Positions 28,707 through 64,000 are shown, counted from the stretch's first letter. The stretch is DNA of 64,000 nt from Nitrososphaerota archaeon (GCA_040290255.1 PSMU01000002.1:294303-358302), one strand, 5' to 3'. Notes: generated from the sequence alone by a model not told the origin. Made by a program: numbers and translations.

Positions 28707-28766
28707 GCCGCGCCGGTTCGGGCGGCCAATTCTTTTTAAAGCCGGCGCCTTGCCGGTTGCCGCTTT

Positions 28767-29108
28767 ATGAGCGCGCAGAGCGAGGGGGGAAGGACAAAGG
28801 CCAGCCAGGTGCTTATTGGCCCTCCCAGGCTAACGCGCTTCGAAAGGGCCCGCATCGTGGGGGCTAGGGCGCTGCAGCTGGCCTATGGAGCCCCCCCGCT
28901 GATACCCGTCACGAAGGAGATGAGGGACCCTATTCAGATCGCGGCGGCGGAGCTGGAGAGGGGCGTGCTGCCCATAATCATTCGCCGCACGCTGCCCGAC
29001 GGCACCTTTCAGGATATACCGCTATCCTGGCTCCTCCCCTCCCAGAAGGAGGGTCGCGCCGCGAGGGCGCCGCGCCGTAAAAGTATAAAAGAAGAGAAGG
29101 AAGGCTAG
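28767..29108 (+). CDS. rpoK: RNA polymerase subunit Rpo6 (K)
   Basis: [22 protein letters not shown]...A..EL..G.LPI.IRR.LPDG signature. Confidence 0.95.
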
Positions 29109-29112
29109 CGGC

Positions 29113-29427
29113 ATGAGCGCAGGTCCAGCCGAGCAGCCGCCAACGAGGCCTACCCCTCCGCCCAATCACATCTTCATAGGAAAGAAGCCGCGGGGCGTCT
29201 ATGTCACGTCGGCGATGATCCAGCTTGCCCAGGCGGGCGAGGTGGTGCTAAAGGCGAGGGGCCTCGCCACGGCCAGGGCGCTGGACGTGGCCAGGATCCT
29301 GACGATGAGGGCGGGCGCCGATATCTTCGAGATAAAGCAGATCAAGATAGGCGAGGAGAGGCTGACGGGGCAAGAAGGGCAGCCCAAGTCCGTCACCACC
29401 GTCGAAATCACCATCGCGAAGAAGTAG
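29113..29427 (+). CDS. alba: Alba nucleic-acid-binding protein
   Basis: IFIGKKP...YV, VVLKARG.A..RALDVA and VEITI motifs. Confidence 0.88.
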   Translation: MSAGPAEQPPTRPTPPPNHIFIGKKPRGVYVTSAMIQLAQAGEVVLKARGLATARALDVARILTMRAGADIFEIKQIKIGEERLTGQEGQPKSVTTVEITIAKK

Positions 29428-29479
29428 ACGGGCCCTACGTTAAGTTTTTAAGCGCGCCCCTGTGGCCCTGGCGTGAGAA

Positions 29480-49379: not shown

Positions 49380-50315
49380 GTGGGGCCCATCATAAGGCGC
49401 CTCAGCCTGCCCAAGCCTCATATCAGGGACCCAAGGGACGTGAGGCTACTCTCGCTCCTCAGGCAGCAGCGGGGGAGCCAGGAGGCCCAGGTGGGCCTGC
49501 TGGCCCTGCCCTACGACGGCGCCTCGCTGGGCAGGAAGGGGGCCAGCGAGGGGCCTAAGGCCCTCCTTGAGGCGCTTCGCTTCTTTTCCTCCTACAGTCC
49601 CCCCGACGTGGACCTAAGGGCCCTGAGCATTCACGTCTTCGGAGAAGCGGCGCTGCAGGGCAAGGGGGTCCGGGAGGCGCACAGGATCGCCAGGAGGGCA
49701 GCGCTTCAGGTCCTGAGGCTCTCCCGCGTGGGCCTGTTCCTCGGGGGCGACCATTCGCTTACTTATCCCTGCTTTGCCGCGCTACTCTCGCTGGAGCCCC
49801 GCGCGCCGGCGCTGGTGTACTTCGACGCACACCTGGACCTAAGGCGGGGCCCTCCTTCGAGCGGGAACGGAATCGGAAGGGCGTTGGCGTTGGCCCGGGG
49901 GCGCGTTGCGGCCGTGAACGTGGGTGCCCGGCCCTTCAGCACGGCCCAGGCCTACTTTAGGAGGGCGCGCGAGCTGGGGCTCACGGTGATCACCAGCCAG
50001 CGGGCGATGGAGCTGGGGGAGGGCCTAGCCGAGGAGCTCCTGCGCCTCATCTCGGGCGCCGATGCCTTATACATCAGCGTCGATGCGGATGTGCTGGATG
50101 CCCCGTATGCCCCGGGCGTGAGCTCGCCCGGCATTTCGGGCTTTACGCCCCTGGCCCTAGGTCGCTGCCTCTTCGAGCTCGCGAGGCGCTGCCCGCTGAG
50201 GGCTGTGGACTTCTGTGAGCTCGCGCCCAGGCTCGACCCCAGCGGGGTTACAGCCCTCTCGCTGGCCCATGCCCTGGCCTGGCTGCTGGCCGGGCTGGCG
50301 CAGAAGCTCACCTAG
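49380..50315 (+). CDS. hutG: Ureohydrolase (arginase family), probable formimidoylglutamase
   Basis: GR.GA..GP, GGDHS.TY, DAHLD, SVDADVLD..APGVS.P and ELAP.LD motifs; divergent from hutH. Confidence 0.78.
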   Translation: MGPIIRRLSLPKPHIRDPRDVRLLSLLRQQRGSQEAQVGLLALPYDGASLGRKGASEGPKALLEALRFFSSYSPPDVDLRALSIHVFGEAALQGKGVREAHRIARRAALQVLRLSRVGLFLGGDHSLTYPCFAALLSLEPRAPALVYFDAHLDLRRGPPSSGNGIGRALALARGRVAAVNVGARPFSTAQAYFRRARELGLTVITSQRAMELGEGLAEELLRLISGADALYISVDADVLDAPYAPGVSSPGISGFTPLALGRCLFELARRCPLRAVDFCELAPRLDPSGVTALSLAHALAWLLAGLAQKLT

Positions 50316-50988
50316 CCCTCGCGTTTCCCCAGAGCAGTATGTGCAGCCTGGGCGACAGGTGGTACCCCCTTCTGGCGGCCTCGCCCTTTAACCACCTCAT
50401 GCGCCCTTCGATCGCCTCGGGAGCCGTGCCCTCGGGCATGAGCAGCACCCTGCAGGGGGGCAGCTCGAGCTCGCTCACGAGGGCGTCCACCTCGAGCAGG
50501 TCGGCGGGCTCCACGACGACGAACTTAAAGTAGCTGTTGGGCAGGCGGGCGAAGCAGCGAAGCGCGGGCCACTTCAGCCTGGCCTCGAACGGGTTGCCCG
50601 AATTCCCCAGCTTCGGCGAGACGTTCCACTGGGCCACCAGCCCTAAGAGCCCCGGCGGCGGAGGCACGGTGCCGTTCGTCTCCACCTCCACGTAGTAGCC
50701 CTCGAGCCTCCTCAGCAGAGGCTCCAGCCTCTTCGCCTGCAGGAGGGGCTCCCCGCCCGTGACCACCAGATGCTTGATGGCGTAGGACCTGATGGCCTCT
50801 TCGACCTCCTCCAGCGGCATGGGCCTGACCTCCTTCGCCATATCATATGTGGACCAATCCCAGGTGTACTTCGTATCGCACCAGGAGCACTTGAGGTTGC
50901 AGAAGGCCAGCCTCAGGAAGACGGCGGGCTCCCCCGCCTTAGGGCCCTCGCCCTGCAGGCTGCCGAAGATCTCCGACACGAAGAGCAT
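50308..50988 (-). CDS. queE: 7-carboxy-7-deazaguanine synthase
   Basis: EIF.SLQGEG...G.P.VF.RL..CNLKCSWCDT, TGGEPL, ETNG, SPK and RLH..LWG motifs. Confidence 0.92.
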   Translation of the reverse strand: MLFVSEIFGSLQGEGPKAGEPAVFLRLAFCNLKCSWCDTKYTWDWSTYDMAKEVRPMPLEEVEEAIRSYAIKHLVVTGGEPLLQAKRLEPLLRRLEGYYVEVETNGTVPPPPGLLGLVAQWNVSPKLGNSGNPFEARLKWPALRCFARLPNSYFKFVVVEPADLLEVDALVSELELPPCRVLLMPEGTAPEAIEGRMRWLKGEAARRGYHLSPRLHILLWGNARAR

Positions 50989-51078
50989 GCCTTTCCGCGA
51001 GCTGTGAATGCCCTCCCCTTAAATGGTTAGTCCCGGGCGCAACGGTAGGCTTATGTAGCCTTAAGGGCAGCGGCATGC

Positions 51079-51477
51079 GTGAAGTACAGGCTGCTCGACC
51101 TGCTGGCCTGCCCCATAGACAAGGCCTTCCCCCTCAAGCACTACTTCCTTAAGGTGGAAAAGAGGTACCCGGAGAGGGCCTTCGAGAGGCCGCTGTGCAC
51201 GCTTTACTGCTCCCTCAATTCTAAGGAGGTCAGGGAGCTGGACCCCCAGGCCTTGGCCAAGGACTGCTCAAGATGCGTGAGCTTTGAGATCACGGAGGCG
51301 CTGCTCGTATGCCCGGCGTGCAATAGGTGGTTCCCCGTGATAGATGACATACCCCAAATGCTGCCGGACGAGCTCAGGGATAAGGAAGCGGACCTGGCCT
51401 TCCTGAGGGCCCATAAGGACGAGCTGCCCGCCGAGGTCCTCAGGGCGGGCCGCCCCTTTGGCCTGGAGGGGACCTAG
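51079..51477 (+). CDS. Trm112-like methyltransferase activator (archaeal long form)
   Basis: MKYRLLDLLACP.DK.FPL ... C..C.RW.P....IP.MLPDELR pattern. Confidence 0.88.
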   Translation: MKYRLLDLLACPIDKAFPLKHYFLKVEKRYPERAFERPLCTLYCSLNSKEVRELDPQALAKDCSRCVSFEITEALLVCPACNRWFPVIDDIPQMLPDELRDKEADLAFLRAHKDELPAEVLRAGRPFGLEGT

Positions 51478-52745
51478 GGCCAGACGCCCAAGGACTTTAT
51501 CGCATCGGCCACCCTCTGCACGGCCAAGCCCAGGGCGCCCATCCTCATCGTCGCGTTATACTTCTTGGCCATCTCGGCCGTGTCCCTGAAGCTCTTTACC
51601 ATCCTGCGCTCCAGCTCCGCCACGATCCTCTGCTCCTCCCACCTTTCGCGCGTCAGGTTCTGCACCCACTCGAGGTACGAGACCGTCACGCCGCCCGCAT
51701 TGGCCAGGATATCGGGGATCACCAGCACGCCGTTCTTTGCCAGTATGGCATCGGCCTCGGGCGTGGTGGGCCCGTTGGCCATCTCGATCACGACCTTGGC
51801 CTTCACCTTGCCCGCGTTCTTGGCCGTGAGCTGGTTCTCCAGCGCGGCCGGGGCCAGGATATCGACGTCCAGCGCGAATAGCTCGTCCTCCGGGATCGTC
51901 TGGGAGCCTGGAAACCCCACGACCGAGCCCGAGCTCTTCTTATACTCTAGGAGCCTGACGGGGTCAAGGCCCTGGGGGCTATAGGCCGCGCCCTTTGAGT
52001 CCGCGACGGCCACGATCTTGGCGCCCGCTTCATGAAGATAAAGGGCCAGGTTGGAGCCCACGTTCCCGAAGCCCTGAATGGCCACCGTGGCCCCCTTGAG
52101 GCTCATGTTCAGCTGGCGCGCCGCCTCCCTCGCTATGAAGAAGCCCCCAAGGCCCGTCGCCTTCTCCCTGACGTAGGAGCCGCCCACCTCGATGGGCTTG
52201 CCCGTCACCACCTCCGGGGCCAAGTAACCCCTCATCTGGCTGTAGGTGTCCATGATCCAGGCCATCACCTGCGCATCGGTGTACACATCGGGCGCCGGGA
52301 TATCCCTATAGGGGCCTATGACGTCGATGATGGAGGCGATGTAGCGCCTCGTGACCCTCTCCAGCTCGGAGGGCGAGAGCTCCTTGGGGTTGCAGTTCAC
52401 GCCCCCCTTTGCGCCGCCGAAGGGCAGGTCAAGAAGGGCGCACTTCCAGGTCATCCACATGGCCAGCGCCTTCACCTCGTTCAGGTCGACCTGCGGATGG
52501 TACCTTATGCCCCCCTTGTATGGGCCGCGCGCGTCGTTGTGCTGCACCCTATAGCCCACGAAGACCTTTATCTCGCCCGAGTCAAGGCGCACGGGCACGG
52601 CCACCTCGATGATCCTCTTGGGCACCTTCAGGTACTCATGTATGCCGGGGTCGAGCCCTATGAGCGAAGCGACCTGCTCCAGCTGCTTGAGGGCGTTCTC
52701 ATAGGGGTTGAGCTCCGCGCGCCGCCTCTGAACGGAAACCTGCAA
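51474..52745 (-). CDS. gdhA: Glutamate dehydrogenase
   Basis: RGPYKGGIRYHP, PFGGAKGG, DIPAPD, TGKP, QGFGNVG and PDILANAGGV motifs. Confidence 0.95.
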   Translation of the reverse strand: MQVSVQRRRAELNPYENALKQLEQVASLIGLDPGIHEYLKVPKRIIEVAVPVRLDSGEIKVFVGYRVQHNDARGPYKGGIRYHPQVDLNEVKALAMWMTWKCALLDLPFGGAKGGVNCNPKELSPSELERVTRRYIASIIDVIGPYRDIPAPDVYTDAQVMAWIMDTYSQMRGYLAPEVVTGKPIEVGGSYVREKATGLGGFFIAREAARQLNMSLKGATVAIQGFGNVGSNLALYLHEAGAKIVAVADSKGAAYSPQGLDPVRLLEYKKSSGSVVGFPGSQTIPEDELFALDVDILAPAALENQLTAKNAGKVKAKVVIEMANGPTTPEADAILAKNGVLVIPDILANAGGVTVSYLEWVQNLTRERWEEQRIVAELERRMVKSFRDTAEMAKKYNATMRMGALGLAVQRVADAIKSLGVWP

Positions 52746-52779
52746 GGCATTCGGCCGCGGGGCGACTTATATTTTAACG

Positions 52780-53481
52780 TTATACCGCCGGCCGGCCCTC
52801 GGCCAGGGCCCTGCACATTTTGTCGAGGGTGGCGGGCCAGTCCTGCGCGAGGACGATGCCGCTGGCCACCAGCACCCCCTCCGAGCCCAGCCTCAGCGCC
52901 GCGCGCACATCCTCCTCGCCTGTGATGCCCGCCCCGCAGAGGACATGCGTGCCCGGCGCCGCCGCCCTGACCAGCTCGACGCCCCTCGAAATGAGCTCCG
53001 GCCTTGCCCTCGAAACGGCCGTGCCGGTGGCGATCAGCTCGGGGGGCTCCAGCGCCAAGAAGTCAGGCCTCAAGGCGGCCAGGCGCGAGGCCTCGGCGGC
53101 ATCGGCCGCGCAGAGAACGGGGGCGAGGCCCTGCTCCCTCAGAAGCTTCACCGCCCTCTCGATGCTCTCCTGGTCGAGCCTGTGCTCGCTGTGGTTGAGC
53201 AGCGAGCCCGAGATGCCGAGGGCGGCCAGCGCTTCGGCCGTTACGTAGCCGGTGGTGCGCTCGCCGCGCACGGGGTCCACGTGCTGCGCGAGCAAGGGCA
53301 GGCGCGTCCTCCGGGCAAGATAGTAAAGCAGCGGCGCAGGCGGGGCCAGGGCGACGCAGACCTCATGCCTCTTGGCCGCCGCCTCGGCCCACCGGGCGAG
53401 CACGGCGGAGGAGGTGCCCAGCGTCCGCCCGTAGTTCTTTAGGTTTATTATGAGCAGGGGAGCCCTAAGCGCCCGGCGCAA
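52780..53481 (-). CDS. tpiA: Triosephosphate isomerase, archaeal type
   Basis: NLKNY, AQHVD, NHSEH, EPPELI.TG, CGAGI and GVLVASG motifs. Confidence 0.92.
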   Translation of the reverse strand: MRRALRAPLLIINLKNYGRTLGTSSAVLARWAEAAAKRHEVCVALAPPAPLLYYLARRTRLPLLAQHVDPVRGERTTGYVTAEALAALGISGSLLNHSEHRLDQESIERAVKLLREQGLAPVLCAADAAEASRLAALRPDFLALEPPELIATGTAVSRARPELISRGVELVRAAAPGTHVLCGAGITGEEDVRAALRLGSEGVLVASGIVLAQDWPATLDKMCRALAEGRPAV

Positions 53482-54598
53482 GCGGCCCCGCCAGCTCCTT
53501 CATGGTCTTAAACCTGCCCTCCAGCTTCTTCATGACGCGGGGCATGGTAGTATACTCCATCTCCTCGGGCCCCAGGCGGTGGGGCATGAAGGGACCCTGC
53601 CTCCTGAGGTAGTCCACGACTTCGTTCGCCCTCTGCCTCGCCAGGTCGAAGGCCGGGTCATCGAAGAGGTCGACGGGGCCTATGAGCCTGCCCTCGGCGA
53701 GCTGGAAGCCTAAGGCCACCACCCTTGGGGGGCCATCGAACCTAGTGCACTGGGCATACTTGAGCGGGACGGGCATGAGCGGACCATGATGTGAGCCCCG
53801 CAGCCAGCCGGCCACGAGATGTGGCGTCGCGAAGGCCTCGAGCACCTCGCCTACGGCCGGAAGCCCGTGCTGCGTCCTCACAAGACAGACGGGATCGTCC
53901 TTGCCCACGTATCTGCCCGCGATCAGCGACATGCGCGTCGTGCTCGAAACGGCGCAGAGCAGGCCATCGGCCCTCCTGTACACCTGATAGACCACATATC
54001 TGCCCGGCGTGCCTATGAGCGCCAGGAGATCGTAAAGCTCTTCGGGCGTCCTGAGGTCCACGTACTTGTCCTCCATGACATCCATAACCCTGAAGATGAA
54101 GCCCTCATGCATCCTATCATCGATGACGAGGCCCGGCGTGTTGAAGGGGTCCGCGAAGATCTTGTACAGCGGCAGGTTCCAGGCCCCCGGCTCCGTCTTG
54201 TCGGCCATGAAGATGATGATGGGCTCGCTGGGCCTCTCCTCGAACTCCGCCTCCGCGTAGCTGGGCCCCATGCCCCTGAGGTTGCCTGAGAAGGCGGTGG
54301 AGATGAGGTCCTGGCCCGCGCCGTAGAGATGATACTTCCTGGAGACCCTTTCGGTCACCTCCTGAAAGACGCGCCAGGCGAGGCCATGTACCTCCTTCGA
54401 GTCCGGCCCCTTCGGGTGGGTCATTATCAGCTCCAGGTCATCGCCGGCATGCGTCACGTGGTAATCCAGCAGAAGGCCCTGGCCCTTCGCCTCCTCCAGA
54501 AGCTGGGCCGCTAGCTTAAGCTGCTCGGGATGCGTCTGCGAGTGGCCCACGAGCGACCCCACGTCCGCCTTGATTACGGAGAGGGTGACCCTAGCCAA
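53465..54598 (-). CDS. fbp: Fructose-1,6-bisphosphate aldolase/phosphatase
   Basis: SVIKADVGS..GH, GDD, YGAGQD, DKTEPGAWN, GKDDP, RGSH.GP, FDGPPR and EMEYT motifs. Start is TTG 54598. Confidence 0.95.
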   Translation of the reverse strand: MARVTLSVIKADVGSLVGHSQTHPEQLKLAAQLLEEAKGQGLLLDYHVTHAGDDLELIMTHPKGPDSKEVHGLAWRVFQEVTERVSRKYHLYGAGQDLISTAFSGNLRGMGPSYAEAEFEERPSEPIIIFMADKTEPGAWNLPLYKIFADPFNTPGLVIDDRMHEGFIFRVMDVMEDKYVDLRTPEELYDLLALIGTPGRYVVYQVYRRADGLLCAVSSTTRMSLIAGRYVGKDDPVCLVRTQHGLPAVGEVLEAFATPHLVAGWLRGSHHGPLMPVPLKYAQCTRFDGPPRVVALGFQLAEGRLIGPVDLFDDPAFDLARQRANEVVDYLRRQGPFMPHRLGPEEMEYTTMPRVMKKLEGRFKTMKELAGPLAPGA

Positions 54599-54682
54599 GC
54601 TGCGCGGCACGGGAGACCACGAAATAAAAGGCTTCCGCCCAGGGCCAGTAACCTTATATGCGGCGAAGCGCGCCAAGCTATC

Positions 54683-55873
54683 ATGAGCAGAAGGGTGGCC
54701 GTGGTCGGCGTGGGCCACTCGAAGTTCGGCAAGAGGAGCGATGCGCTGCTGGAGGGGCTCGCCAGGGAGGCCGTGCAGGAGGCGCTGGATGACGCGCGCC
54801 TCTCGCCTAGGGATGTTGAGTTCCTATATGTCTCCAACACGGGCCTTTCGCACGATTCGCTTCCAGCCGTAGAGGTGGCCGAGGCCTGTGGGCTGACGCC
54901 CAAGGGCTCTATGAGGATAGAGGCGGCCTGCGCCTCGGGCAGCGCGGCGGTCTACGCCGCGTATATGGCCATAAGGTCGGGCCTCATAGATGTGGCGCTC
55001 GTCGTGGGCGTCGAGAAGATGACCGAGCTGCCCACGCCCGACATGGTGGAGCTAATAGGCAGGGCAGGAAACTACCTCTGGGAATTTCAGCACTTCGGGC
55101 TCACGTTTCCGGGCTACTATGCCCTTTACGCGACCGCCTACCTGCACGCATACCCGGCGGCCAGGCCCGAGGATCTCGCGGAGGTGGCCATAAAGAACCA
55201 TCACTACGGCGCGCTCAACCCTAAGGCCCACATGCGGAGGCCGATAACACTGGATGAGTACTTAGGCTCCAAGATGATCGCCTGGCCGCTCAGGCTCTAC
55301 GACTGCACGCTCATCTCCGACGGGGCAGCGGCCGTGGTGCTGGCCGGGGAGGAGCTCGCGAGGAGGCTCTCGGATGCGCCGGTATGGATCGAGGGCCTGG
55401 CCGGGGCGACGGGCACGTACAACCTGAGCCTGAGGGGTGATTTCTTAGGGCTCGAGCCCGCCGCGCTGGCCGCGAAGGAAGCCTATAGGCGGGCGGGGAT
55501 CGATTGGGAGAACCCCACCTCCCAGCTGGACGTGGCCGAGGTCCATGACTGCTTCACGATCGCGGAGCTGCTGGCCTACGAGGACCTGCACTTCTGCCCA
55601 AGGGGCGAGGGGTATAAGCTCGCCAGGGAGCGCCAGACCTACGCAGGGGGCAAGATAGGCGTCAACTTGGATGGGGGGCTTAAGGCCAAGGGCCATCCCA
55701 TAGGAGCGACGGGCGTGAGTATGTACGTGGAGGTGACGCGGCAGCTGCAGGGCAGGGTCGAAAAAGGAAGGCAGGCTCCCATCAGGAGGGGCCGCGGGCT
55801 CGTGCACAACGTGGGCGGGACGGGCCACTACGCATACGTGGGCATAGTCTCACTGGGGGAGGGGAAGGCATGA
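54683..55873 (+). CDS. Archaeal thiolase (acetyl-CoA acetyltransferase)
   Basis: EAACASG, GVEKM, KNH, SDGAAA, EVHDCFT, GHPIGATG and HNVGG motifs. Start is ATG 54683. Confidence 0.9.
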   Translation: MSRRVAVVGVGHSKFGKRSDALLEGLAREAVQEALDDARLSPRDVEFLYVSNTGLSHDSLPAVEVAEACGLTPKGSMRIEAACASGSAAVYAAYMAIRSGLIDVALVVGVEKMTELPTPDMVELIGRAGNYLWEFQHFGLTFPGYYALYATAYLHAYPAARPEDLAEVAIKNHHYGALNPKAHMRRPITLDEYLGSKMIAWPLRLYDCTLISDGAAAVVLAGEELARRLSDAPVWIEGLAGATGTYNLSLRGDFLGLEPAALAAKEAYRRAGIDWENPTSQLDVAEVHDCFTIAELLAYEDLHFCPRGEGYKLARERQTYAGGKIGVNLDGGLKAKGHPIGATGVSMYVEVTRQLQGRVEKGRQAPIRRGRGLVHNVGGTGHYAYVGIVSLGEGKA

Positions 55874-56376
55874 GCGGGGAGGTCGTCGACGAAGCGAGGG
55901 CCAAGAGGCTGCTCGAAGCCGGCATACCCGTTAAGCTGGAGCCCGGCGAGGGGCTCGTGCTCTCCGATGCCAGGGAGCTGAGGCTACGCTATAGGCTGCC
56001 GGCCAAGCCGCTGCTGTCCTTTTTGGAGGGGCTTGCCAGAGGCGCGCTCGTGGGCAGCAAATGCTCACGCTGCGGGCTCGTGGCCTTCCCACCCGTTGAA
56101 GCGTGCACCGCCTGCGGCTCCGAGGCCAAGCCTCACGAGCTGAGCGGCGAGGCCACGCTGCTTACCTACACGCAGATCTCAGCGAAGCCTTCCTCCTTTC
56201 AGCACTATGATGATTATATCGTGGCCGTAGGCCGCCTGAAGGAGGGGCCCGCGCTCGTGGCCTGGCTGGAGGGCGCGGCCCTGAGCGATATAAGCCCGGG
56301 CGGGAAGCTCAGGGTTAGGGTCAAGAAGAGGAACCCGGAGGGGTTCCTCACGTACTCCTTTTTTCTAGTAAGTTAA
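55870..56376 (+). CDS. DUF35 Zn-ribbon/OB-fold protein (thiolase partner); last codons supplied by the integrated element
   Basis: KCSRCG...FPP...C..CG followed by an OB fold; ATGA overlap with the thiolase stop. Confidence 0.88.
   Translation: MSGEVVDEARAKRLLEAGIPVKLEPGEGLVLSDARELRLRYRLPAKPLLSFLEGLARGALVGSKCSRCGLVAFPPVEACTACGSEAKPHELSGEATLLTYTQISAKPSSFQHYDDYIVAVGRLKEGPALVAWLEGAALSDISPGGKLRVRVKKRNPEGFLTYSFFLVS
56352..56361 (+). repeat. Left att core / direct repeat GTACTCCTTT
   Basis: Identical to 59568-59577 and marks the GC shift. Confidence 0.85.
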
Positions 56377-56379
56377 AGT
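56365..56379 (+). repeat. Left inverted arm CTAGTAAGTTAAAGT
   Basis: 14/15 match to the reverse complement of 59541-59555. Confidence 0.8.
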
Positions 56380-56436
56380 TTAAATTCTCCAAGGCCTTTT
56401 CCCAATACCTTCATCATCTCCGTGCCTTTTTTAAAA

Positions 56437-56715
56437 TCAAATGAGCCTCCAGCTCAATAGCTTAATCGATATCCCATTAGAGCCGCTAAGGAAAGACCTT
56501 ATGCGTGGGCTGTCCTTTCGCTTCATCTCATACCAAGCCCTTAGAGTAGCTATAACCACATCATCATCAACAACAACTATTAGCTTATCTTTACATAGCT
56601 TAATCCCTTTCAGACGAGCGACCTTAACTCCGTGAGTGGCTTGTTTGGGCTTGATGATAGGGAATCTCCTCCTAGCCCACCTATCGTTGATTAGGTATTC
56701 GACTATCAGCTCCAT
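56437..56715 (-). CDS. Element hypothetical protein (basic; 3' end possibly frameshifted)
   Basis: 92 aa, with TGATG coupling to the upstream gene. An alternate frame continues GGSFDFKKGTEMMKVLGKGLGEFKL* to 56373. Confidence 0.55.
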   Translation of the reverse strand: MELIVEYLINDRWARRRFPIIKPKQATHGVKVARLKGIKLCKDKLIVVVDDDVVIATLRAWYEMKRKDSPRIRSFLSGSNGISIKLLSWRLI

Positions 56716-57224
56716 CAGTAGAATCGGCCCGTCCTCTCCTCTTCCTTAGGCCTTTTGGCCTCTTCGATTTGCTTTTCCAAAAGCTTTAGCCTTAATCTCT
56801 CCTTCCCGGTCTTTAATTTTACCTGCTCGGCCGACTCCTGAAAGACAGACCTTAAGCTATCTATTATGGTGAGGGGCCTTACTCCTTTATAGGTCTGTTG
56901 GTGTGAGGCTTCTTCGCTTGGCTCGGGCTCTGGCTCGGCATCTAAGCTAGGTTGATGGGTTGTCTCCTCCTTGACTAACGAGCCCTTCTCGTCATAGTAG
57001 CGCTTAACGATTCGACCATCGTATAGCTCTTCTTTCTCCATTCTATACTTAGGCCTAGGCCTTTCCTCATGAGCGACTCCAATAGGTTCTTCTTCTCTAA
57101 AACGGAGGATTTGAAGCCTTCCTCTAAAGCCGGGGAAGGCATCACGGAGATTTTGTCGGATGGTTTGGAGGTTACGTCTAAACACATCGAAGTCGAATTC
57201 GTCCCTCCTCCTAGACCTAGACAT
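56715..57224 (-). CDS. Element hypothetical protein (charged, EP-rich linker, C-terminal coiled coil)
   Basis: ATG 57224 is preceded by an SD-like GGAGGAGTGA and overlaps the upstream gene stop. Confidence 0.65.
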   Translation of the reverse strand: MSRSRRRDEFDFDVFRRNLQTIRQNLRDAFPGFRGRLQILRFREEEPIGVAHEERPRPKYRMEKEELYDGRIVKRYYDEKGSLVKEETTHQPSLDAEPEPEPSEEASHQQTYKGVRPLTIIDSLRSVFQESAEQVKLKTGKERLRLKLLEKQIEEAKRPKEEERTGRFY

Positions 57225-58187
57225 ACTTATCACTCCTCCTCGACCCACTCAACATTCTCATAGCGGCCGAGGGCTCATAGGGCTCGGCTTCCTCTTCCCC
57301 CTCCTCTCTATAAGGTCGTCCCATTGCCCGTATCAGCTTGCCTAAGCCCTCCAATCGCCGGTCTATCATCTTAAGCCCCTCCATCTGAACCTCGTATTGC
57401 GAAATGGTTTTATGGTCGCTTCTTAGACGCTCTAGCTCGCTCTTTATGAAGTTCGGCTCCTTCTCCATAATTTCTTTATCCTTTTGTGCGATTTGGTCTC
57501 TAAGCTTAGTATTCTCCTCTATTAGCTCATCAAGGCGGTCCTCTAGGCGAGAAAGCCTATCATTATCGCTAGTATCCGGGGGTTAGGTGGATTGATTTTA
57601 GCCTTCAGTTCTTCCCACTTCATAAACTTATCGAATAGGTCGCCACTTTCTTCCTTCGTTACCTTATAGCCCATAGCCCCTAGCCTCCGCTTAGTCTCCA
57701 TCAATTCATCATCCTCATAGATTGGATGCCTGAACGAAGCCTCATAATCGGAAGGCTTTAATTCCCTTTTGATATCGGATGGAATAGGCTCACCACGCCT
57801 AAGACTCCAATAGAATAGTGATATTATAGCATCGATTACGTCTCGAGAGGCATAGCTTTTCTTTAAGGCATAGTACACGCTTTTTACATCATAGCCCAAT
57901 TCATCGCAAAACTTCATTACAACATCAATATTACGGAAGCGGATGGAAGTAAGAAAGCCCTTCAGAGTGTCCTTTTCAGTCGGAATGATGGGCGCCCCCT
58001 CCTCGGGTAAGGGGCTCTCCTCTTTTCTAGACAATGGAGTCCTATGAGAGCGAAGCTTATGGCCCTTTAGGCTTACCTCGCTATTGAAGCCCTTACCACA
58101 TATTTCACAAGCATAATCAGACTCGATATCAGCTTCTGATTTCGCCTCTTGAATCTCGATATCTTCGAGCTTAGCGGGCCTAACCAC
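57217..58187 (-). pseudogene. C2H2 zinc-finger + coiled-coil protein split by a 1-nt frameshift at G5 (57578-57582)
   Basis: YACEICGKGF..EVSLKGHKLRSH finger. The shifted frame opens exactly at the C-run (TAA CCC CCG GAT) and reads DRLSRLEDRLDELIEENTKLRDQ... into the 83-aa ORF. Confidence 0.7.
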
Positions 58188-58201
58188 TCTCCATCATCCT
58201 C

Positions 58202-58297
58202 CTAACTGCCTCCCTCCCCCTTCTCGGTAATCGCCAGTTCACCGACAATCTTAAGCCTCACATATTTTGACTTCTCCAAAAGCTCTCTAAACTCCAC
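58202..58297 (-). pseudogene. Short or 5'-truncated ORF VEFRELLEKSKYVRLKIVGELAITEKGEGGS
   Basis: Ends directly at the SD (AGGAGG) of the Zn-finger gene, suggesting a remnant operon member. Confidence 0.35.
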
Positions 58298-58356
58298 CCT
58301 CTTCCGAAAAGAAGGGGGTATGCCGAACGCTTGGCTTCGAGGATAATAACGAAGGT

Positions 58357-58518
58357 ATGCGGCGGCTAATCCGTAAGCTAAATGGGGTATTCCTACACGA
58401 GTTCATTCATCACATCCTACACGTCGAAGGGCTTGAATGCGACATTCCCGGGCCCGCGCTCGAGAAGCGGGTGGAGCGGGCCGTCGTCGCTATGCTGAGG
58501 GAAAAATCGGAGGAGTGA
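58357..58518 (+). pseudogene. HExxH zincin-like fragment
   Basis: MRRLIRKLNGVFLHEFIHHILHVEG...EKRVE; the frame is open upstream only to about 58291. Confidence 0.5.
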
Positions 58519-58571
58519 GGCTAGTAAGCTATGAAAAGGCTTAAGTATTTTACTTGTTCACCTTAATTACA

Positions 58572-59090
58572 ATGAGGCAAGATGAGGAAGTGAGGAAGAG
58601 CCTAATAATAGGAGGAATAGTATTAATAATATTGGGTTTTGCCCTCTCGCTAGCCCTCCCAATAATACTCGTCCCGATATCCGAAAAGATCACATATCAA
58701 GAAGTCTCCCCACTCCATTATGGTACGCTAACTTTTTTCCTTAAACAAGGCGATAGGATAGAGGGCGAATTTACCGTCAGAGGCGGAAACGACGATATAA
58801 TATTCTATATCAAAGACCCCTACGGTAATATCATTTATGAGCCCGCCGGCCAGGTACATGGTTGGCATAAGTTCAGCATCACGGCGAGTAGTAATGGAGC
58901 CTATACGCTGTATTTCGATAATACCTTTTCTCTAATCACAAGTAAGTCCGTATATCTGACCATACGCATATGCCCGTGTGGGCTCCTTGAAACGGCGAGA
59001 ATTCTCGGTATTTCCGCGATGATACCGGGCGCAATTATGGTAGCAATAGGGATGATCCTTAAGCCTAAAGTAAAGGAGGCAAAAGTCTAA
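58572..59090 (+). CDS. Membrane protein with emp24/p24 GOLD-like extracellular domain
   Basis: N-terminal TM, then V.GGNDDI.F.I.DP.G and GAYTLYFDNTFSLITSKSVYL, then a C-terminal TM. GAAAAGGCTTAAGTA lies about 24 nt before ATG 58572. Confidence 0.75.
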   Translation: MRQDEEVRKSLIIGGIVLIILGFALSLALPIILVPISEKITYQEVSPLHYGTLTFFLKQGDRIEGEFTVRGGNDDIIFYIKDPYGNIIYEPAGQVHGWHKFSITASSNGAYTLYFDNTFSLITSKSVYLTIRICPCGLLETARILGISAMIPGAIMVAIGMILKPKVKEAKV

Positions 59091-59118
59091 CTCAATCTAT
59101 AGCTTCAATTTTTTATCA

Positions 59119-59494
59119 TCATCTAATAAATTCCATTAAAGAGTGATATGGTGCCTTCATACTATCAGAGCTACCTCTCACGAAGAACCTCCTCGTTTTA
59201 GTTATTACCTCAATTACTCCTTTCTTCGCTGTGAATCCCTCCTCCCTAAACCTAATGGTTTCGATGCCCTCAAGCTTCGCTGATACTATATCTCTTTTCT
59301 TTATTGGTTAAATATAGGTAGTACTGTACTTGATATTTCCATACTCGACTAACTCTGGGCTTTGATACCTCACCTCTTCTGCGGGCATAAGCCATTGCTT
59401 CTAAGCCTACCACTTTTTCAGGTTCAGCCTTTAAGAATTGCCTGAATTCAGCTAAAGTCTCCTCAAACGCCTTATTTTTTAACTCAGACATCAT
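59119..59494 (-). pseudogene. PH-like domain protein interrupted by a frameshift near 59300
   Basis: YLYLTNK continues in a shifted frame as KRDIVSAKLEGIETIRFREEGFTAKKGVIEVITKTRRFFVRG...LMEFIR*. Confidence 0.5.
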
Positions 59495-59540
59495 TCAGGC
59501 TCCTCCGCCTAAATAGAGGCTAAGGAGCCATGTATGTTTT

Positions 59541-59555
59541 ACTTTAACTTTCTAG
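59541..59555 (-). repeat. Right inverted arm ACTTTAACTTTCTAG
   Basis: Its reverse complement CTAGAAAGTTAAAGT matches the left arm at 14/15. Confidence 0.8.
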
Positions 59556-59567
59556 GCAAGCCCTAAA

Positions 59568-59592
59568 GTACTCCTTTGAGTTGGTACGCTAG
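59568..59592 (+). repeat. Right att core GTACTCCTTT followed by the displaced original DUF35 3' end (GAG TTG GTA CGC TAG)
   Basis: In frame with the DUF35 gene if the element is removed; its TAG overlaps the convergent menA stop. Confidence 0.8.
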
Positions 59593-60476
59593 GCGAGGAG
59601 CCTGCCGAGCAGGAGGCCCAGGATGTACAGCGCCATGAAGAGCAGGAGCAGCGCTGCCGTCCTTGGGTCGGCATCATCGGGCATGGCCCTGCGGAAGTCG
59701 CGCAGAAGGGCCAGGGCCCTGCCCACGGTGGCCAAGGGCAGGAGCGTGAGCGGGCTGAAGTTAAGAAGGGCCACGCCCAAGGGCGGCCACGCGTAGCAAA
59801 GGAGCAGCAGCGCGGAGAAGAGCGAGAGGGCCCTTCGCTTCCCCAGCAGCGAGGGCAGCGTGGTAATGCCCGAGGCCGAATCATAGTCTATATCCCTTAT
59901 GTTGTTGGCCATCAGCACCAGCGCCACCAAGATCCCCATCGGGATGGAGGAAAAGAGGACCTGCGCGGAAAGCCTGCCGGTGAGCACGAAGTAGACGCCG
60001 CTGACCATAAGGGGCCCCCAGGCCAGGAAGACGGCCAGCTCCCCGGCCGCCCTGTACTTGAGCTGCAGGGGGCCCATGGTGTAGAAGGCGCTGGCCACCA
60101 TGCCGGCCGAGGCTAGGGCCAGGATGAGCGGGCCCCTGAGCAGGGAGAGGTAGGCCGCCACCGCCCAGGCCAGCGCGTAGAGGGCCGCGCAATAAACGAG
60201 AAGGGGCCTAGTGCCCAGCTGTCCATAGAGATGTGGGTGCGGCCTGTAGCGCGCCGTAGGAGCGCCGGGCCTATCGACGCCCCTGCGCACGTCAAAGTAG
60301 TCGTTCAGCAGGTTGGTGGCCGCATGCGCTGAGATGAGCGCAAGGAGGGTGAGCAGGAAGAGAGGGGGCTCGAAGGCCTGCGCTTCCTGGGCTAGGGCGC
60401 CCGCCAGGGCGGAGGAGAGGACCGTCATGATGAACGACCACGGCCTGGTCGCCAGGAACAGCGCGGCCGGGCGCAT
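59589..60476 (-). CDS. menA: MenA-like UbiA prenyltransferase
   Basis: ATRPWS, NDYFD...GVD, YT.GP..LKY...GE and NNIRD...D...G..TL motifs. Confidence 0.82.
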   Translation of the reverse strand: MRPAALFLATRPWSFIMTVLSSALAGALAQEAQAFEPPLFLLTLLALISAHAATNLLNDYFDVRRGVDRPGAPTARYRPHPHLYGQLGTRPLLVYCAALYALAWAVAAYLSLLRGPLILALASAGMVASAFYTMGPLQLKYRAAGELAVFLAWGPLMVSGVYFVLTGRLSAQVLFSSIPMGILVALVLMANNIRDIDYDSASGITTLPSLLGKRRALSLFSALLLLCYAWPPLGVALLNFSPLTLLPLATVGRALALLRDFRRAMPDDADPRTAALLLLFMALYILGLLLGRLLA

Positions 60477-60499
60477 GGGCTCGGTGGCCGTGAGGGCTA

Positions 60500-61117
60500 T
60501 TAAGCTTGTGGGAGGAACGGGAGCAGCACGAAGGCCAGCTCATCCCAGAGAGCATGGCTGGAGGCGGCAAGGGCGAGCGAGTTGGAGAGGTGGAAGAGGA
60601 GCCCGAAGACGAGGCCGAGGGCCAGCGCGAGCGCCAGAAGGGGGAGGTTGAGCGTCCAGAGGTGGATGCTGGCGTAAAGCAGCGAGGTCAGAAGCAGCGC
60701 CCGCGCGGGGCTGTAGCGGCTGGCGAGCCTGCTCTGCACGTAGCCCCTCCAGAAGGCCTCCTCCGAAGCCCCGACATATGCGAGCAGGAGCGAGAGCGGC
60801 ACCTTGGGCAGGCCAGAGCCGAGGGCATAAACGGCCCTGGCGCCGGCCTCCACGAGCGGCCTGAACACCTGAAAGGAGAGGGAGGCCAACCAATATAATG
60901 GAAGGGCCGAGGCCGCTCCGAGGGCTATGCTTGCCAAAAGAACAGGCCCAGGGGGCCTGGGCCTGGACCTCAGCGAGCTCGCGGACAGCAGAAGGAGCAC
61001 GCTAGCAGCAACGCCAAGCCTGTACCAGAAGAGGCTGAAGTCCAGCCTAAAGGCCAACAGCCAGCAGAAGTGGGCCAGGGCCAGCGAAGCAGAGAGGCGG
61101 GGGCTAGGGGAGCTCAT
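60500..61117 (-). CDS. CPBP intramembrane protease
   Basis: EEAFWRG, YASIH and SHALWD motifs plus TM helices. Confidence 0.85.
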   Translation of the reverse strand: MSSPSPRLSASLALAHFCWLLAFRLDFSLFWYRLGVAASVLLLLSASSLRSRPRPPGPVLLASIALGAASALPLYWLASLSFQVFRPLVEAGARAVYALGSGLPKVPLSLLLAYVGASEEAFWRGYVQSRLASRYSPARALLLTSLLYASIHLWTLNLPLLALALALGLVFGLLFHLSNSLALAASSHALWDELAFVLLPFLPQA

Positions 61118-62108
61118 CTCTGAAGCAGCGCACGGCCTCCGCGAAGTTGCCCACCGGCGATATGATCAGCAGGTCGAGGCCCTGGTCCAGATACCTGCCC
61201 AGGGCCGCGCGGGCCTCGGAGGGCGTGCCCGAGGCGGTCAGGGCGAGCACCATCTCATCGCTTATCAGCGAGGATGCCAGGGCTAGGTCGCGCCTCCTCC
61301 AGGCCTCCCTTATCTGCGGCAGGCCCTCCGTGCGCACCCCAAGCTCCGCCAGGGTTTTCTCGGGCACCACCTCGGCCAGCTGATAGATGAAGTAGGGGTC
61401 CCTCTTCACGGCATCCAGTGCCCTACGAGGGCTAGCGTCCACGGAAGCGAGAATATAGGCCGCCTTGTCCACGCGCCTCCCTTGCCTAGCCTCGCCCTCC
61501 CTAACCCACGCAAGCATTTGGGCAAGGTGCGATGGCGTGGCCACGCCGGGCGAGGTGATAGCGCCGTCGGCCACGCGCGCTGCGTTGGCCAGCGTCCTAG
61601 GGCTCAGGGAGGCCAGGTAGATGGGTATCGCTCCTTGGGCCCGGGTCATAAGGCGCAGCCTCCTTACGGTGTAGAAGTCGCCCTCCAAGAGGGCCTCCTC
61701 GCCGCCTATGAGCGCCCTTATGATCTTGATGGCCTCCAGCAGGCGCCGCAGGGGCCTGGTCTTCTCCACGGGGTGCACGGGATAGCCTATGAGCGGAAGC
61801 CAGGGGAAGCCGCCCAGCCCTATGCCCAGGGAAAACCTGCCGCCCGATGCATTATGGAGCGTGATGGCGGAGCTCGCGAGCAGGACGGGATGGCGCGTGA
61901 TGACGCTGGTGCAGCCTACGCCGAGCCGAATCCTCGAGGTGGCCCGCGCGACGAGCAGCAGCGCGGCCAGGCTATCGCCCCAGAGGGGGTTCTCATGGAC
62001 CCAGAAGGAGTCGTAGCCGAGCTCCTCCGCCGCCTTCGCCTGGGCCACGAGGTCCTCCAGGCTCTGGGCCCCCACCGGCAGAGGTGAACCTATGCCAAGG
62101 CGGGCCAC
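61104..62108 (-). CDS. Luciferase-like (LLM) F420/flavin-dependent oxidoreductase
   Basis: AEELGYDSFWVHE, RHP, SGGRFSLGIG.G, IPIYLA and A.VADG motifs. GTG 62108 fits the promoter spacing. Confidence 0.85.
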   Translation of the reverse strand: MARLGIGSPLPVGAQSLEDLVAQAKAAEELGYDSFWVHENPLWGDSLAALLLVARATSRIRLGVGCTSVITRHPVLLASSAITLHNASGGRFSLGIGLGGFPWLPLIGYPVHPVEKTRPLRRLLEAIKIIRALIGGEEALLEGDFYTVRRLRLMTRAQGAIPIYLASLSPRTLANAARVADGAITSPGVATPSHLAQMLAWVREGEARQGRRVDKAAYILASVDASPRRALDAVKRDPYFIYQLAEVVPEKTLAELGVRTEGLPQIREAWRRRDLALASSLISDEMVLALTASGTPSEARAALGRYLDQGLDLLIISPVGNFAEAVRCFRDELP

Positions 62109-62200
62109 GGGCCCCCTGGCGCCCAACGATATATGCGCGTATCGCCCTTTGCGCTCCGTGGCTAAGCGAAGGTTTTTAACGCATAGCTCCACGGGTGCCG

Positions 62201-62521
62201 ATGCTCTTTCTGGTCCGAGTTAAAGTGCGGCAGCCTGAGCAGATGAGCCAGAAGCAGCTCATGCAAGCCTGGCAGCGCGAGGCCGAGGCCGCGCTGGGCG
62301 CCCTGAAGGCCGGCAGGGTCAAGGGCCTCTATAAGGTCACGGGCAGAAGGGAAGCCATCGCCATCCTCGATGTCTCCTCCCATGAGGAGTTGGACAGGAT
62401 CCTGGAGGGGCTTCCGATAGTTAGGGAGCTGGGGCCATGGGTGCGAATCGATGTTACGCCAATACACCCCTACGAGAGCTTCTATGAGCTCATCAGGAAG
62501 ATGGCCTCCGAAGCGGGGTAG
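62201..62521 (+). CDS. Muconolactone isomerase-like protein
   Basis: MLFLV.V.V..P, W..E...A, YKV.G, DV.SHEELD..L..LP and VTP..PY motifs; TTTTTAA upstream. Confidence 0.75.
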   Translation: MLFLVRVKVRQPEQMSQKQLMQAWQREAEAALGALKAGRVKGLYKVTGRREAIAILDVSSHEELDRILEGLPIVRELGPWVRIDVTPIHPYESFYELIRKMASEAG

Positions 62522-62578
62522 ATAACGCAAAGGGGCTGAGCTCGCAGTGGGCCAGGGCGCTGCTGCTCTTGCGCGGGG

Positions 62579-63841
62579 TTAACCGGCCGGCGATGCTCGA
62601 AATGCCGAACGGCCGGCAAGCGGCGGCCGCGACGGGACTATGTCCTCATCACGCGCGGCGAGAGCTGCGTATTCTGGGCCGGCCTCGACGGAGGAATCCT
62701 GCAGAAGGGCCAACGGCCAAGCTAAAAGGACGGCGAGGGCTTGTGGGGTGCCCTGTGATGTACCTGGGGAGGTCTGTTCCCTGATGGCGCCGCCCGGCCT
62801 GCTCAGCAGGTGGGCATAGCGTATGCTCTGAACGAGAAAGGCCTGAACCGAACGATCATGCTCTATCACGTCGCTCGCCATCGCCCCAAAATGTATGACC
62901 AAGCCTTTCTGATATACATGTAGGTAAGCAGCTATGACGTCGTGGTCGTGAGGTTTATGCCTCTGCCAGACGGCTATTATGGTCGTATGGCTCATGTTGA
63001 GTAACCTGTTTTCCTCGTGGCCATGGTAGGACAGGAAGACCCTGGGCCCGAAGAGCCTGTAGAGGTTTATGATGATGGGATTCGTGGTGTTGGCATCTAT
63101 GGCCAGCAGGGCACCAGTATAGCTGCCGGGGTCATAACAGCAGTAGTCGCTCGCTAGCCAATTAGCATTTTCATCCCGCCATCTGCTATATACGTCGGGG
63201 CGTGCGGCGGTTCCGTTGAAGGACCAGCCATGTCCCCGGACCAGGGAAAGGCGGTGGGCCCGCGGCCAATACATCACCTCGGCCAGGAAAGTGGTCGCGT
63301 CCATAACGAGCAGGAATCCCCCGGATGCCACAAACCTCCTTATATCGTAGTATTCCCTTGCCGTCACATACTCCTCAAAGCCCAAGATGAGCAGGTCAAA
63401 CTGCCTTTCGCCCTTCGCGTCAAAGAGCGCGCCTCGGTCGATGTCTATATCGGAGATGACCCATATATTCTTGCCGAGCTGCAGGCCCGCCCTGCCGGCC
63501 TCCTTCGAAATGACGAAGTTATAGAGGCCGCGGGCCCAGCCCCAGTCATCGACTATGCTGGCGTTCAAGAAGTGAAGGTCGCTCCTGACCGTTTCGTTGC
63601 GTTTAGTATGAGCGTGCTTGTGAAAGAAGAAGTAGAATGAGGAGTAGGCGGTCGCAGTGAAGACAGGCTTCACTATGGCCATGCGTAGCCCCCTGCTACC
63701 TAGCTGCGAGAGAAGGTCGGGGAGCCCCGGGGTAGCGGCTACTTCGGGCTGAGGACTCGCATAGGTCCCGAGCGAGCCTGCCCTCAGTATATCAGGGACA
63801 AGCAGTGCAAAGAGCATGATGAGAGATATGACCGCCGCCAT
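62579..63841 (-). CDS. Secreted or membrane-anchored protein with N,N-dimethylformamidase beta-subunit-like C-terminal domain
   Basis: Hydrophobic N-terminus, P.FT.TAY, D.D.., LILG.EEY.T...Y....RFV..GG.L and GHSW-like motifs; lower GC than its neighbours. Start uncertain (63841 or 63853). Confidence 0.6.
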   Translation of the reverse strand: MAAVISLIMLFALLVPDILRAGSLGTYASPQPEVAATPGLPDLLSQLGSRGLRMAIVKPVFTATAYSSFYFFFHKHAHTKRNETVRSDLHFLNASIVDDWGWARGLYNFVISKEAGRAGLQLGKNIWVISDIDIDRGALFDAKGERQFDLLILGFEEYVTAREYYDIRRFVASGGFLLVMDATTFLAEVMYWPRAHRLSLVRGHGWSFNGTAARPDVYSRWRDENANWLASDYCCYDPGSYTGALLAIDANTTNPIIINLYRLFGPRVFLSYHGHEENRLLNMSHTTIIAVWQRHKPHDHDVIAAYLHVYQKGLVIHFGAMASDVIEHDRSVQAFLVQSIRYAHLLSRPGGAIREQTSPGTSQGTPQALAVLLAWPLALLQDSSVEAGPEYAALAARDEDIVPSRPPLAGRSAFRASPAG

Positions 63842-64000
63842 GCGGGTCCCCATGGGGGGCGGCGGCCTAATAAGGGCTTTTTTTGAAACGGGTAGATCCC
63901 CTCTCGGACCCAAACATCGCGGGCTCCGCATAAAGGGCATAGCGCAGGCCCCTACTTAGCGGGTGGGGATGCCCTCATCTTTGGCCAGGTGCTCCGGCCG

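Follow-up and report, generated by a model that had tools for sequence, protein, structure and literature searches.

A 3.2-kb foreign insertion without an integrase in the coding end of an archaeal DUF35 gene, and its kinship to integrase-bearing elements

The 64,000-nt stretch of a Nitrososphaerota genome analysed here (GCA_040290255.1, PSMU01000002.1:294303-358302; referred to as the window in the rest of the text) carries a 3.2-kb insertion of foreign DNA in the 3' end of a gene coding for a DUF35 protein, and natural populations are polymorphic for the presence of this insertion. Protein comparisons show that the inserted element is akin to archaeal elements that encode a tyrosine integrase. 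The explanation that we favour, at a probability of about 0.58, holds that the element comes from a tyrosine-integrase family, of which it represents a reduced, non-autonomous form, and that site-specific recombination placed it at the end of the DUF35 gene. As an archaeal element that sits in the coding end of a gene, it is a clean example verified in populations, and it introduces no new principle. It also brings to light a so far undescribed family of small archaeal integrative elements, marked by a zinc-ribbon integrase, a zinc-finger/coiled-coil protein and a 108-aa protein. The window element would be a decayed, integrase-less member of that family, segregating in natural hot-spring and soil populations and carrying a fast-evolving membrane protein.

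Borders of the insertion and the empty site

The inserted DNA is bracketed by two copies, both on the plus strand, of a 10-bp direct repeat, GTACTCCTTT, which we refer to as the attL core (56352..56361) and the attR core (59568..59577). Between them lies the unique part of the element (56362..59567), which measures 3206 bp, is present in a single copy in the genome and makes up, together with one repeat, an insertion of 3216 bp. Its GC content is 45.3%, in a genome of about 65% GC, compared to 64.5% and 65.9% in the 3-kb flanks, which agrees with the original prediction that an exact repeat brackets AT-richer DNA. The 10-mer occurs three times in the whole 1.21-Mb genome, both strands included, two of these occurrences being the element borders; the third, at C3:118554, lies inside a ~75-kb low-GC stretch of that contig. 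The repeat extends imperfectly over 14 of 16 positions (CCTCACGTACTCCTTT compared to CCTAAAGTACTCCTTT), and only three sites of the genome match the extended-core 16-mer with at most two mismatches.

In the DUF35 gene (55870..56376, plus strand), the core falls in codons five to seven from the end, and the last four codons and the stop (56362-56376) are supplied by the element. The open reading frame (ORF) ends there with TAC TCC TTT TTT CTA GTA AGT TAA (...TYSFFLVS), its stop lying at 56376. The native 3' end of the gene, GAG TTG GTA CGC TAG (ELVR and stop), is displaced to 59578..59592 on the plus strand, and without the element the protein ends in YSFELVR. Both endings, YSFELVR for the restored frame and YSFFLVS for the frame closed by the element, read as originally predicted.

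We aligned the contigs of four public metagenome runs (X1, X2, X5 and X6, from three studies) on positions 54900-61000. In all four runs, contigs of the empty site join 56351 to 59568, skipping 3216 nt with 10 nt that fit either side, so that the joint falls in the attL core with an ambiguity of 10 nt; these contigs join the displaced native end directly to the DUF35 gene. Run X6, which comes from a different study labelled hot springs, contains a strain of 95-99% similarity, its bridging contig being 858 nt long. The empty site is present and the element absent in X5 and X6. Empty and filled forms are both found in X1, where the empty-site contig has a depth of 102.6 compared to 9.1 for the element contig (flanks 88-103), and in X2, with 7.5 compared to 4-6; these contig depths do not equal shares of cells, and one of the runs may itself be the source of the assembly.

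The filled junctions were also recovered, the left one by an X2 contig that covers 56332-56766 and the right one by an X1 contig that covers 56400-59597. The end points of the element contigs in X1 and X2 are those expected from the 31-mer graph for an integrated copy, confirming that the insertion is real. We considered a misassembly, which is ruled out by the empty-site contigs together with the independently seen filled junctions. The empty site foreseen in the original prediction therefore exists, in 4 of 4 runs from three studies, and both junctions have the support of contigs. In the two runs that hold both alleles the host flanks assemble as one sequence, and public data contain at least four alleles of the element, all of them ~3.2 kb long. 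Outside a GOLD-domain gene described below, the X1 variant of the element shows 6 differences in ~2660 nt, compared to 2 in 2885 nt of the host flanks.

In the element-free run X6, short contig pieces match the element near window positions 57081 and 59300 and then continue into unlike sequence; a related element may exist elsewhere in that community. Parts of the aligned stretch have no cover in X5 and X6.

Kinship to integrase-bearing elements and gene content

One gene of the element, on the minus strand, codes for a C2H2 zinc-finger protein and is split over two frames. Its N-terminal two thirds form a 214-aa ORF (57543..58187) with the finger (Pfam zf-C2H2_6) and a conserved helical domain. 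Its coiled-coil C-terminal part (57280..57606) follows directly in another frame and matches positions 202-304 of the family profile (E 2.4e-12); an 83-aa ORF (57217-57468) lies within this part. An exhaustive profile search with the zinc-finger protein returned 146 proteins at E <= 0.001. For the family alignment we kept 44 matches of 261-425 aa with a single matched stretch and added the window ORF, leaving out multi-finger proteins, shorter fragments and the near-identical variant P0001. In members of this family, which measure ~300-420 aa, a single C2H2 finger is combined with a conserved helical domain (~80 aa) and, at the C-terminus, a coiled coil; the element gene has all three parts, distributed over its two frames. 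One member is a hypothetical protein of a metagenome-assembled genome (MAG) of Njordarchaeota. Among 5.8 billion clustered proteins, the zinc-finger protein has three near homologues, one of which is a 99% variant (214 aa) while the two others have the coiled coil fused.

A C5 run (57578-57582, read on the minus strand) marks the frame break of the zinc-finger gene, and a -1 shift at this point would join both parts. Since the two pieces are collinear on the profile and lie in two frames, the gene is best read as broken at this run. The break could reflect programmed frameshifting or a common inactivating mutation; P0001 (99% identical) has the same truncation and is also 214 aa long. The libraries name nothing in the family beyond the finger and coiled-coil noise. 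In the structure model, the central domain (pLDDT >90, residues 21-125) is a small helical bundle without evident active site, and searches with the model by Foldseek and VIA-align returned zinc-finger matches only, the best Z of 5.7 for the central helical domain being uninformative.

A search of 401 genomes of the phylum with the family profile gave a match at E <= 1e-5 in 32 of them, nearly all finger-only or coiled-coil-only. Three genes stood out: a full-length one in genome G499 (E 1.7e-86), a split one in genome G411, and the window gene with its two collinear pieces (E 2.3e-54 and 2.4e-12). The window zinc-finger ORF is 37% identical over 137 aa (E 7e-18) to the intact 313-aa gene of G499. 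The latter sits in an island of ~7.7 kb with shifted GC (L039, about 7.2-15 kb), located between two divergent genes. This island also codes for a 471-aa tyrosine integrase with a zinc ribbon (PF00589, E 3.6e-20), a 436-aa winged-helix (Rep-like) protein, a ribbon-helix-helix (RHH) protein, small membrane ORFs and a 108-aa ORF. The G411 element (L040, about 1.4-8.7 kb) adjoins the 3' end of a DNA ligase gene and carries an integrase 37% identical to that of G499 (E 3e-81), a prim-pol Rep and a UDG-like gene. In both integrases (L039:7319-8734 and L040:7111-8643), the catalytic domain is followed by an unusual C-terminal zinc ribbon and then a coiled-coil tail. The zinc-finger family gene of G411 is broken by an exact 25-nt tandem duplication (L040:2481-2530).

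A second gene links the window element to that of G499. The 108-aa ORF of the island matches window positions 59125-59400 on the minus strand (tblastn, E 8e-9), each of its two halves also matching alone and in collinear order (E 4e-8 and 1e-8). The homologue in the window (59122..59400, minus strand) is broken by an in-frame TAA at 59308-59310, with ~12 residues lost, and this stop is unchanged in the X1 variant; a 74-aa ORF (59270-59494) overlaps the broken gene in another frame. The order of genes is also kept between the two elements, running from the 108-aa gene through a variable middle to the zinc-finger gene, an ORF of ~170 aa and the element end. In the window this last ORF (56715..57248, minus strand) measures 177 aa, or 169 aa from its ATG, is highly charged and of low complexity, and lies directly downstream of the zinc-finger gene. 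Its counterparts by position are a 161-aa ORF in G499 and a 174-aa ORF in G411. Its sole match among the 5.8 billion proteins is a 99% variant of itself, and a search of the ESM Atlas with the 169-aa form gave no usable match.

When all ORFs and frame fragments of the element were scanned against Pfam, PHROGs and NCBIfam, no integrase, Rep or transposase was found, and neither element end contains an integrase-like fragment of the kind left by an SSV-type split integrase. In the 91%-complete genome, PF00589 and PF16795 had no match, and tblastn with the integrases and Reps of G499 and G411 returned nothing at E <= 0.05. These searches (the two Pfam families and tblastn with the two archaeal integrases) detected no tyrosine recombinase of any kind in that genome, the XerA type included. 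Rfam gave no match at E <= 0.1 on positions 50000-64000. The genome's lone serine recombinase (C4:24.7-25.4 kb), an invertase/resolvase-like protein of 236 aa that stays below the NCBIfam cut-offs, was set aside, as it lies ~325 kb away in host-like DNA with no link to the element. Given its broken genes and the lack of an integration and replication module, compared to the intact genes of its relatives, the window element is probably a reduced relative of these elements. The original prediction of a site-specific element thus stands in so far as a foreign element was inserted; it does not extend to a working element, since integrase, Rep and transposase are lacking, which had gone unnoticed there, and two genes are broken.

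Searches further afield returned little. A class-level search of the 401 genomes with a four-row alignment found only the window's own genome and one weak zinc-finger match. A search of metagenome contigs with the DUF35 protein for close relatives of the locus gave a single distant match of 43% identity. The zinc-finger protein and its alignment had no match in viral and genome contigs, nor had the exact 28-nt left end in viral contigs, the DNA of the element in phage and plasmid collections, or P0002 in phages and plasmids in protein mode. The ORFs of the element have no paralogues elsewhere in the genome.

On the plus strand, the element carries a gene for a 178-aa GOLD/emp24-domain protein (58554..59090; PF01105, 48.6 bits compared to a cut-off of 25.9, residues 61-139) with hydrophobic segments at both its N- and C-terminus. 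This gene is intact in all variants. On contigs of ~2.8-3.3 kb, the GOLD proteins of element variants share 95, 88 and 86% amino acid identity with that of the window, and the zinc-finger and 177-aa proteins of such variants reach 99% identity. Of the 30 differences counted for the X1 variant, 24 fall in the GOLD ORF, which represents 17% of the length (P 5e-14), and 18 fall within 58599-58743. The GOLD gene diversifies rapidly and looks like the selected cargo of the element. Distant homologues (41-49%) were found on short metagenome contigs, and no match was obtained with the GOLD alignment in viral contigs or with the GOLD protein against phages in protein mode. A homologue of 46% is located on a contig labelled Latescibacterota (L026:7944-8477), among ordinary bacterial genes.

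Two smaller ORFs complete the element. One, of 53 aa (58357..58518, plus strand), has an HExxH-like motif (HEFIHH) and no significant family match; like the GOLD gene, it has no match in the G499 and G411 elements. The other, of 92 aa (56437..56715, minus strand), has no significant family match either, its weak GT2-like matches lying below the cut-offs.

Attachment-site arms and the origin of the insertion

Beyond the 10-bp core, the arms of host and element carry the same base at 11 of 21 positions (P 0.0045, for a 21-position window that was chosen post hoc, as was the half-site pattern). Four 9-nt half-sites are mutually similar: CTCACGTAC on the host left, CTAAAGTAC on the element left, and the reverse complements CTAGCGTAC of the host right and TTAACTTAC of the element right. 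The element-side half-site GTAAGTTAA, at 56368-56376, includes the new stop codon. The host stop TAG, the element stop TAA and the common Val codon GTA all lie within the right-hand half-site stretches, and the Leu retained in the FLVS tail has a codon that differs from the native one.

The resemblance between the native tail ELVR and the element-supplied FLVS exceeds chance. A four-residue tail results at 283 of the 6292 joining points that the element offers, and only 4 of these tails have at least two identities. The same-length, partly identical tail noted in the original prediction is thus supported. A native FFLVS ending was found in none of 14 DUF35 orthologues and in none of 17 nearer relatives. 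The ends of the orthologues (...TYELVPIE, ...YEWVPVE, ...TYYLEPA and ...YYVFVPA) indicate a loosely conserved tail. The original prediction had taken the resemblance for mimicry at the protein level that preserves the function of the host gene. This reading is unneeded, because GTA and the stop fall in an arm stretch where the DNA itself is alike: a tail that keeps its length and its Val would follow from the similarity of the attP and attB arms, and the Leu, with its different codon, would be incidental. For an element-supplied C-terminus, arm similarity is a simpler origin than selection for mimicry, the more so with a tail that is poorly conserved among orthologues.

Near its ends the element also has a 15-nt inverted repeat (left arm 56365..56379, right arm 59541..59555, both given on the plus strand), complementary at 14 of 15 positions. 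With at most one mismatch, its arms occur in the whole genome only at the two element ends. The left arm contains the half-site GTAAGTTAA. The arms do not abut the direct repeats, from which 3 nt separate the left arm and 12 nt the right arm. DNA folding of the element ends revealed no difference from shuffled sequences. An internal att-like sequence (59208..59227, plus strand), inside the broken 108-aa-type gene, is identical to attL at 17 of 20 positions and to the extended core at 14 of 16; the value of 17 was reached by 2 of 2000 shuffles, which places it beyond chance. A model in which this site joins two elements in tandem by accretion was rejected, as one conserved gene runs collinearly across it, and the site is no chimeric att. 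Upstream of the site, 21 nt resemble the right-end arm of the element at 12 positions.

We propose a site-specific recombination between the chromosome and either an ancestor of the element or the present mini-form, the latter served by an integrase in trans. The crossover would have fallen within the 10-bp core in the fifth- to seventh-last DUF35 codons. The element arm, resembling the host arm, would have brought GTA and a stop starting with TA at the same distances, and the DUF35 protein would thereby have kept its length and come to end in FLVS instead of ELVR. From the kinship to integrase-bearing elements we infer that a tyrosine integrase made the junctions. The integrase and replication genes would since have been lost, presumably by deletion, or were never present; two genes would have broken, and the intact GOLD-domain membrane gene would have been kept while diversifying rapidly.

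Several points weigh against this proposal. No integrase that recognises the GTACTCCTTT core was found, kinship being the only pointer to such an enzyme, and, the genome being 91% complete, the missing part could hold one. The G499 and G411 loci yielded no definable att sites of their own; searches for the core and for the 16-mer gave nothing meaningful there, and no common core emerged. Both relatives sit at targets other than DUF35, and the 177-aa ORF has weak similarity to its counterparts (E 0.02 to the 174-aa ORF of G411; E 2.4, not significant, to the 161-aa ORF of G499). No back-joint of a circular or excised form was present among the contigs of the four runs, contigs being prone to drop rare forms. 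The post hoc choice of the arm window is joined by the spacing of the half-sites, which lie 12 nt apart and thus wider than the 6-8 nt that usually separate the half-sites in tyrosine recombinase core sites. Finally, 15-nt inverted repeats together with a 10-bp flanking repeat are also compatible with a transposon.

An origin as a non-autonomous transposon, in which the inverted repeats would have been used by a transposase supplied in trans and the 10-bp repeat would be the resulting target-site duplication, agrees with the 14/15 inverted repeat found only near the two element ends, with the flanking direct repeat and with the lack of an integrase in the element. We nevertheless regard it as improbable. 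The inverted repeats are offset from the direct repeats, the element is present in a single copy, neither a transposase nor another element with these ends was found in the 91%-complete genome, and the relatives have tyrosine integrases, not transposases. Target duplication also does not predict the likeness of host and element arms beyond the repeat; site-specific recombination is preferred over it because the arms are alike, the half-sites are alike and the resemblance of the tails is non-random. We give even less credence to a new recombinase hidden among the unassigned ORFs (those of 177, 92 and 74 aa and that of the zinc-finger protein), by which the element would move itself. Several ORFs are without known family and the central domain of the zinc-finger protein lacks a convincing fold match, but the zinc-finger gene is in two pieces in every variant seen, the bundle modelled for its central domain shows no evident active site and the rest of the protein is finger and coiled coil. 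The same gene moreover coexists with a classical integrase in G499 and G411, and the 177-aa ORF combines high charge with low complexity. Least credible of all is an ancestral filled state from which the empty site arose by deletion between the 10-bp repeats. Precise deletions via short direct repeats do occur, but the foreign composition of the element (45% compared to 65% GC), its relationship to mobile elements of other archaea, the stop overlap of the empty allele, which resembles that of other convergent pairs here, and the empty site of the more distant X6 strain all speak for an insertion.

A tentative place is left for a mini-element that is still mobile, as a satellite or cis-mobilizable element (CIME) whose functional attL and attR are acted upon by the integrase of a helper element or virus with the same core. 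Filled and empty alleles coexist in two runs on host flanks of one sequence; the four or more alleles of similar length point to a reduced form that is stable and widespread in the population. Both att cores and the 15-nt inverted repeat are intact, and CIMEs are by definition without integration genes but with attL and attR (PMC5704250). However, no helper, circular junction or second insertion site was seen in searches of the contigs, the genome and viral contigs, and the two genes broken alike in different variants look like decay. For the low divergence outside the GOLD gene, a single old insertion that is now segregating suffices, and homologous recombination between strains can maintain the presence/absence polymorphism. 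If the mini-form were still mobilised in trans, the CIME/satellite concept would extend to Archaea. A further elaboration, which we consider rather unlikely, portrays the element as a living archaeal satellite without integrase and Rep that borrows the tyrosine integrase of a helper through its att arms, with a hypervariable GOLD surface protein as payload, for instance in superinfection exclusion or receptor masking. If true, Archaea would have their first described integrative element of the CIME-like or satellite type, located in an essential lipid-pathway gene and with the GOLD protein engaged in an arms race. The reduced derivative of an integrase-bearing family, inserted by site-specific recombination, remains the explanation that we prefer.

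Known systems and the genomic neighbourhood

Insertion in a protein gene is already known in Thaumarchaeota, where 14 of 68 integrated elements lie in the 3'-distal regions of such genes (Krupovic et al. 2019, PMC6563490), and further targets of this kind are catalogued in a review (PMC8371274). The protein-gene target, which the original prediction had set apart from the usual tRNA genes, is thus already described in this group, and what sets the window element apart is that it has no integrase. The nearest parallel is NitEve-E2, from the same broad archaeal group. This element has a short att (13 bp compared to 10 bp here) and a site verified against the empty site, and its own stop replaces 8 nt including the native one, so that the frame stays closed (PMC6563490). 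The cryptic integrated elements (CIEs) of Thaumarchaeota measure 2.6-98 kb and have an integrase by definition (PMC6563490); unlike them, the window element has none, and with its 3.2 kb it belongs near the low end of that range. Set beside the features by which CIEs and other integrated mobile genetic elements (iMGEs) are recognised, it has att repeats, foreign DNA, an empty site and a 3'-distal target, and lacks the integrase. DUF35 does not figure among the targets listed in the main text of PMC6563490, whose supplementary table S2 could still hold one. A family adapted to this particular protein-coding target, as first proposed, is not borne out, since neither of the relatives with genomic context sits at a DUF35 gene.

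For an element of this kind without an integrase, the closest concept would be the bacterial CIME, which it resembles. CIMEs have lost integration and transfer genes and kept attL and attR (Guedon et al. 2017, PMC5704250); like them, the window element lies between attL and attR at the 3' end of its target gene and appears to derive from integrase-bearing relatives. Unlike it, CIMEs come from the integrative and conjugative element (ICE) and integrative and mobilizable element (IME) systems of Firmicutes and are mobilised after accretion with an incoming ICE (PMC5704250). No helper or tandem partner was seen for the window element, and its internal att-like site lies in a conserved gene and is not chimeric. 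With the G499 and G411 elements it has in common the zinc-finger/helical/coiled-coil gene followed by the ORF of ~170 aa, and with that of G499 also the 108-aa gene, whereas those two carry a zinc-ribbon tyrosine integrase and a Rep-type gene and occupy other targets. Miniature inverted-repeat transposable elements (MITEs) and non-autonomous insertion sequences (IS) likewise have no mobility gene, inverted repeats near their ends and a short flanking direct repeat. The window element differs from them by its single copy, by inverted repeats that do not abut the direct repeats, by the arm similarity beyond the repeat and by relatives that use integrases.

At icd of E. coli, phage 21 and e14 bring a substitute 3' end of the target gene, which stays functional. 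They differ from the window element in being bacterial prophages with their own integrase and in duplicating a much longer stretch of the target gene.

The host assembly has a size of 1.21 Mb, and the closest relative among the species genomes compared is related at the class level only. The DUF35 gene (Zn ribbon and OB fold; PF12172 and PF01796, above cut-off) follows its partner, a thiolase gene (54680-55873), an adjacency found in 19 of 19 loci of relatives. The nearest thiolase homologues, of 57-63% identity, come from MAGs labelled Thaumarchaeota, Candidatus Caldarchaeum and Nitrososphaerales. A complex of HMGS, ACAT and DUF35, in which DUF35 partners thiolase and HMG-CoA synthase, serves the archaeal mevalonate pathway (PMC12960953), and the window copy may be the one in that complex. 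A second, weaker DUF35-like match lies elsewhere in the genome, on contig C3.

Downstream, on the minus strand, lies a convergent gene for a UbiA-family prenyltransferase (59589..60476; PF01040), which occupies this position in 0 of the 19 loci of relatives. The native DUF35 stop TAG overlaps its stop (59589-59591, minus strand) as CTAG. This overlap had been foreseen with menA as the partner and likened to other convergent pairs of the region. The overlap itself is there and the likeness is plausible, the restored DUF35/UbiA pair sharing a 4-nt stop overlap with 4 of 12 candidate convergent ORF pairs of the window (ORFs taken from stop to stop, 120 aa or longer, rather than curated genes); the gene, however, is MenA-like and falls below the NCBIfam cut-offs. 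These four pairs have their overlapping stops (CTAG or CTAA) at window positions 8214-8217, 12787-12790, 34476-34479 and 51474-51477.

Low-GC DNA is also found elsewhere in the genome. Contig C7 has islands at 1-1500 (GC 0.40), 27101-30700 (0.49) and 56301-59600 (0.44), which might be other mobile elements and have no protein in common with the 3.2-kb element. On contig C3, ~75 kb (~72-148 kb) have a GC near 0.51, compared to 0.62-0.65 elsewhere, and could represent a large island or a mis-binned part.

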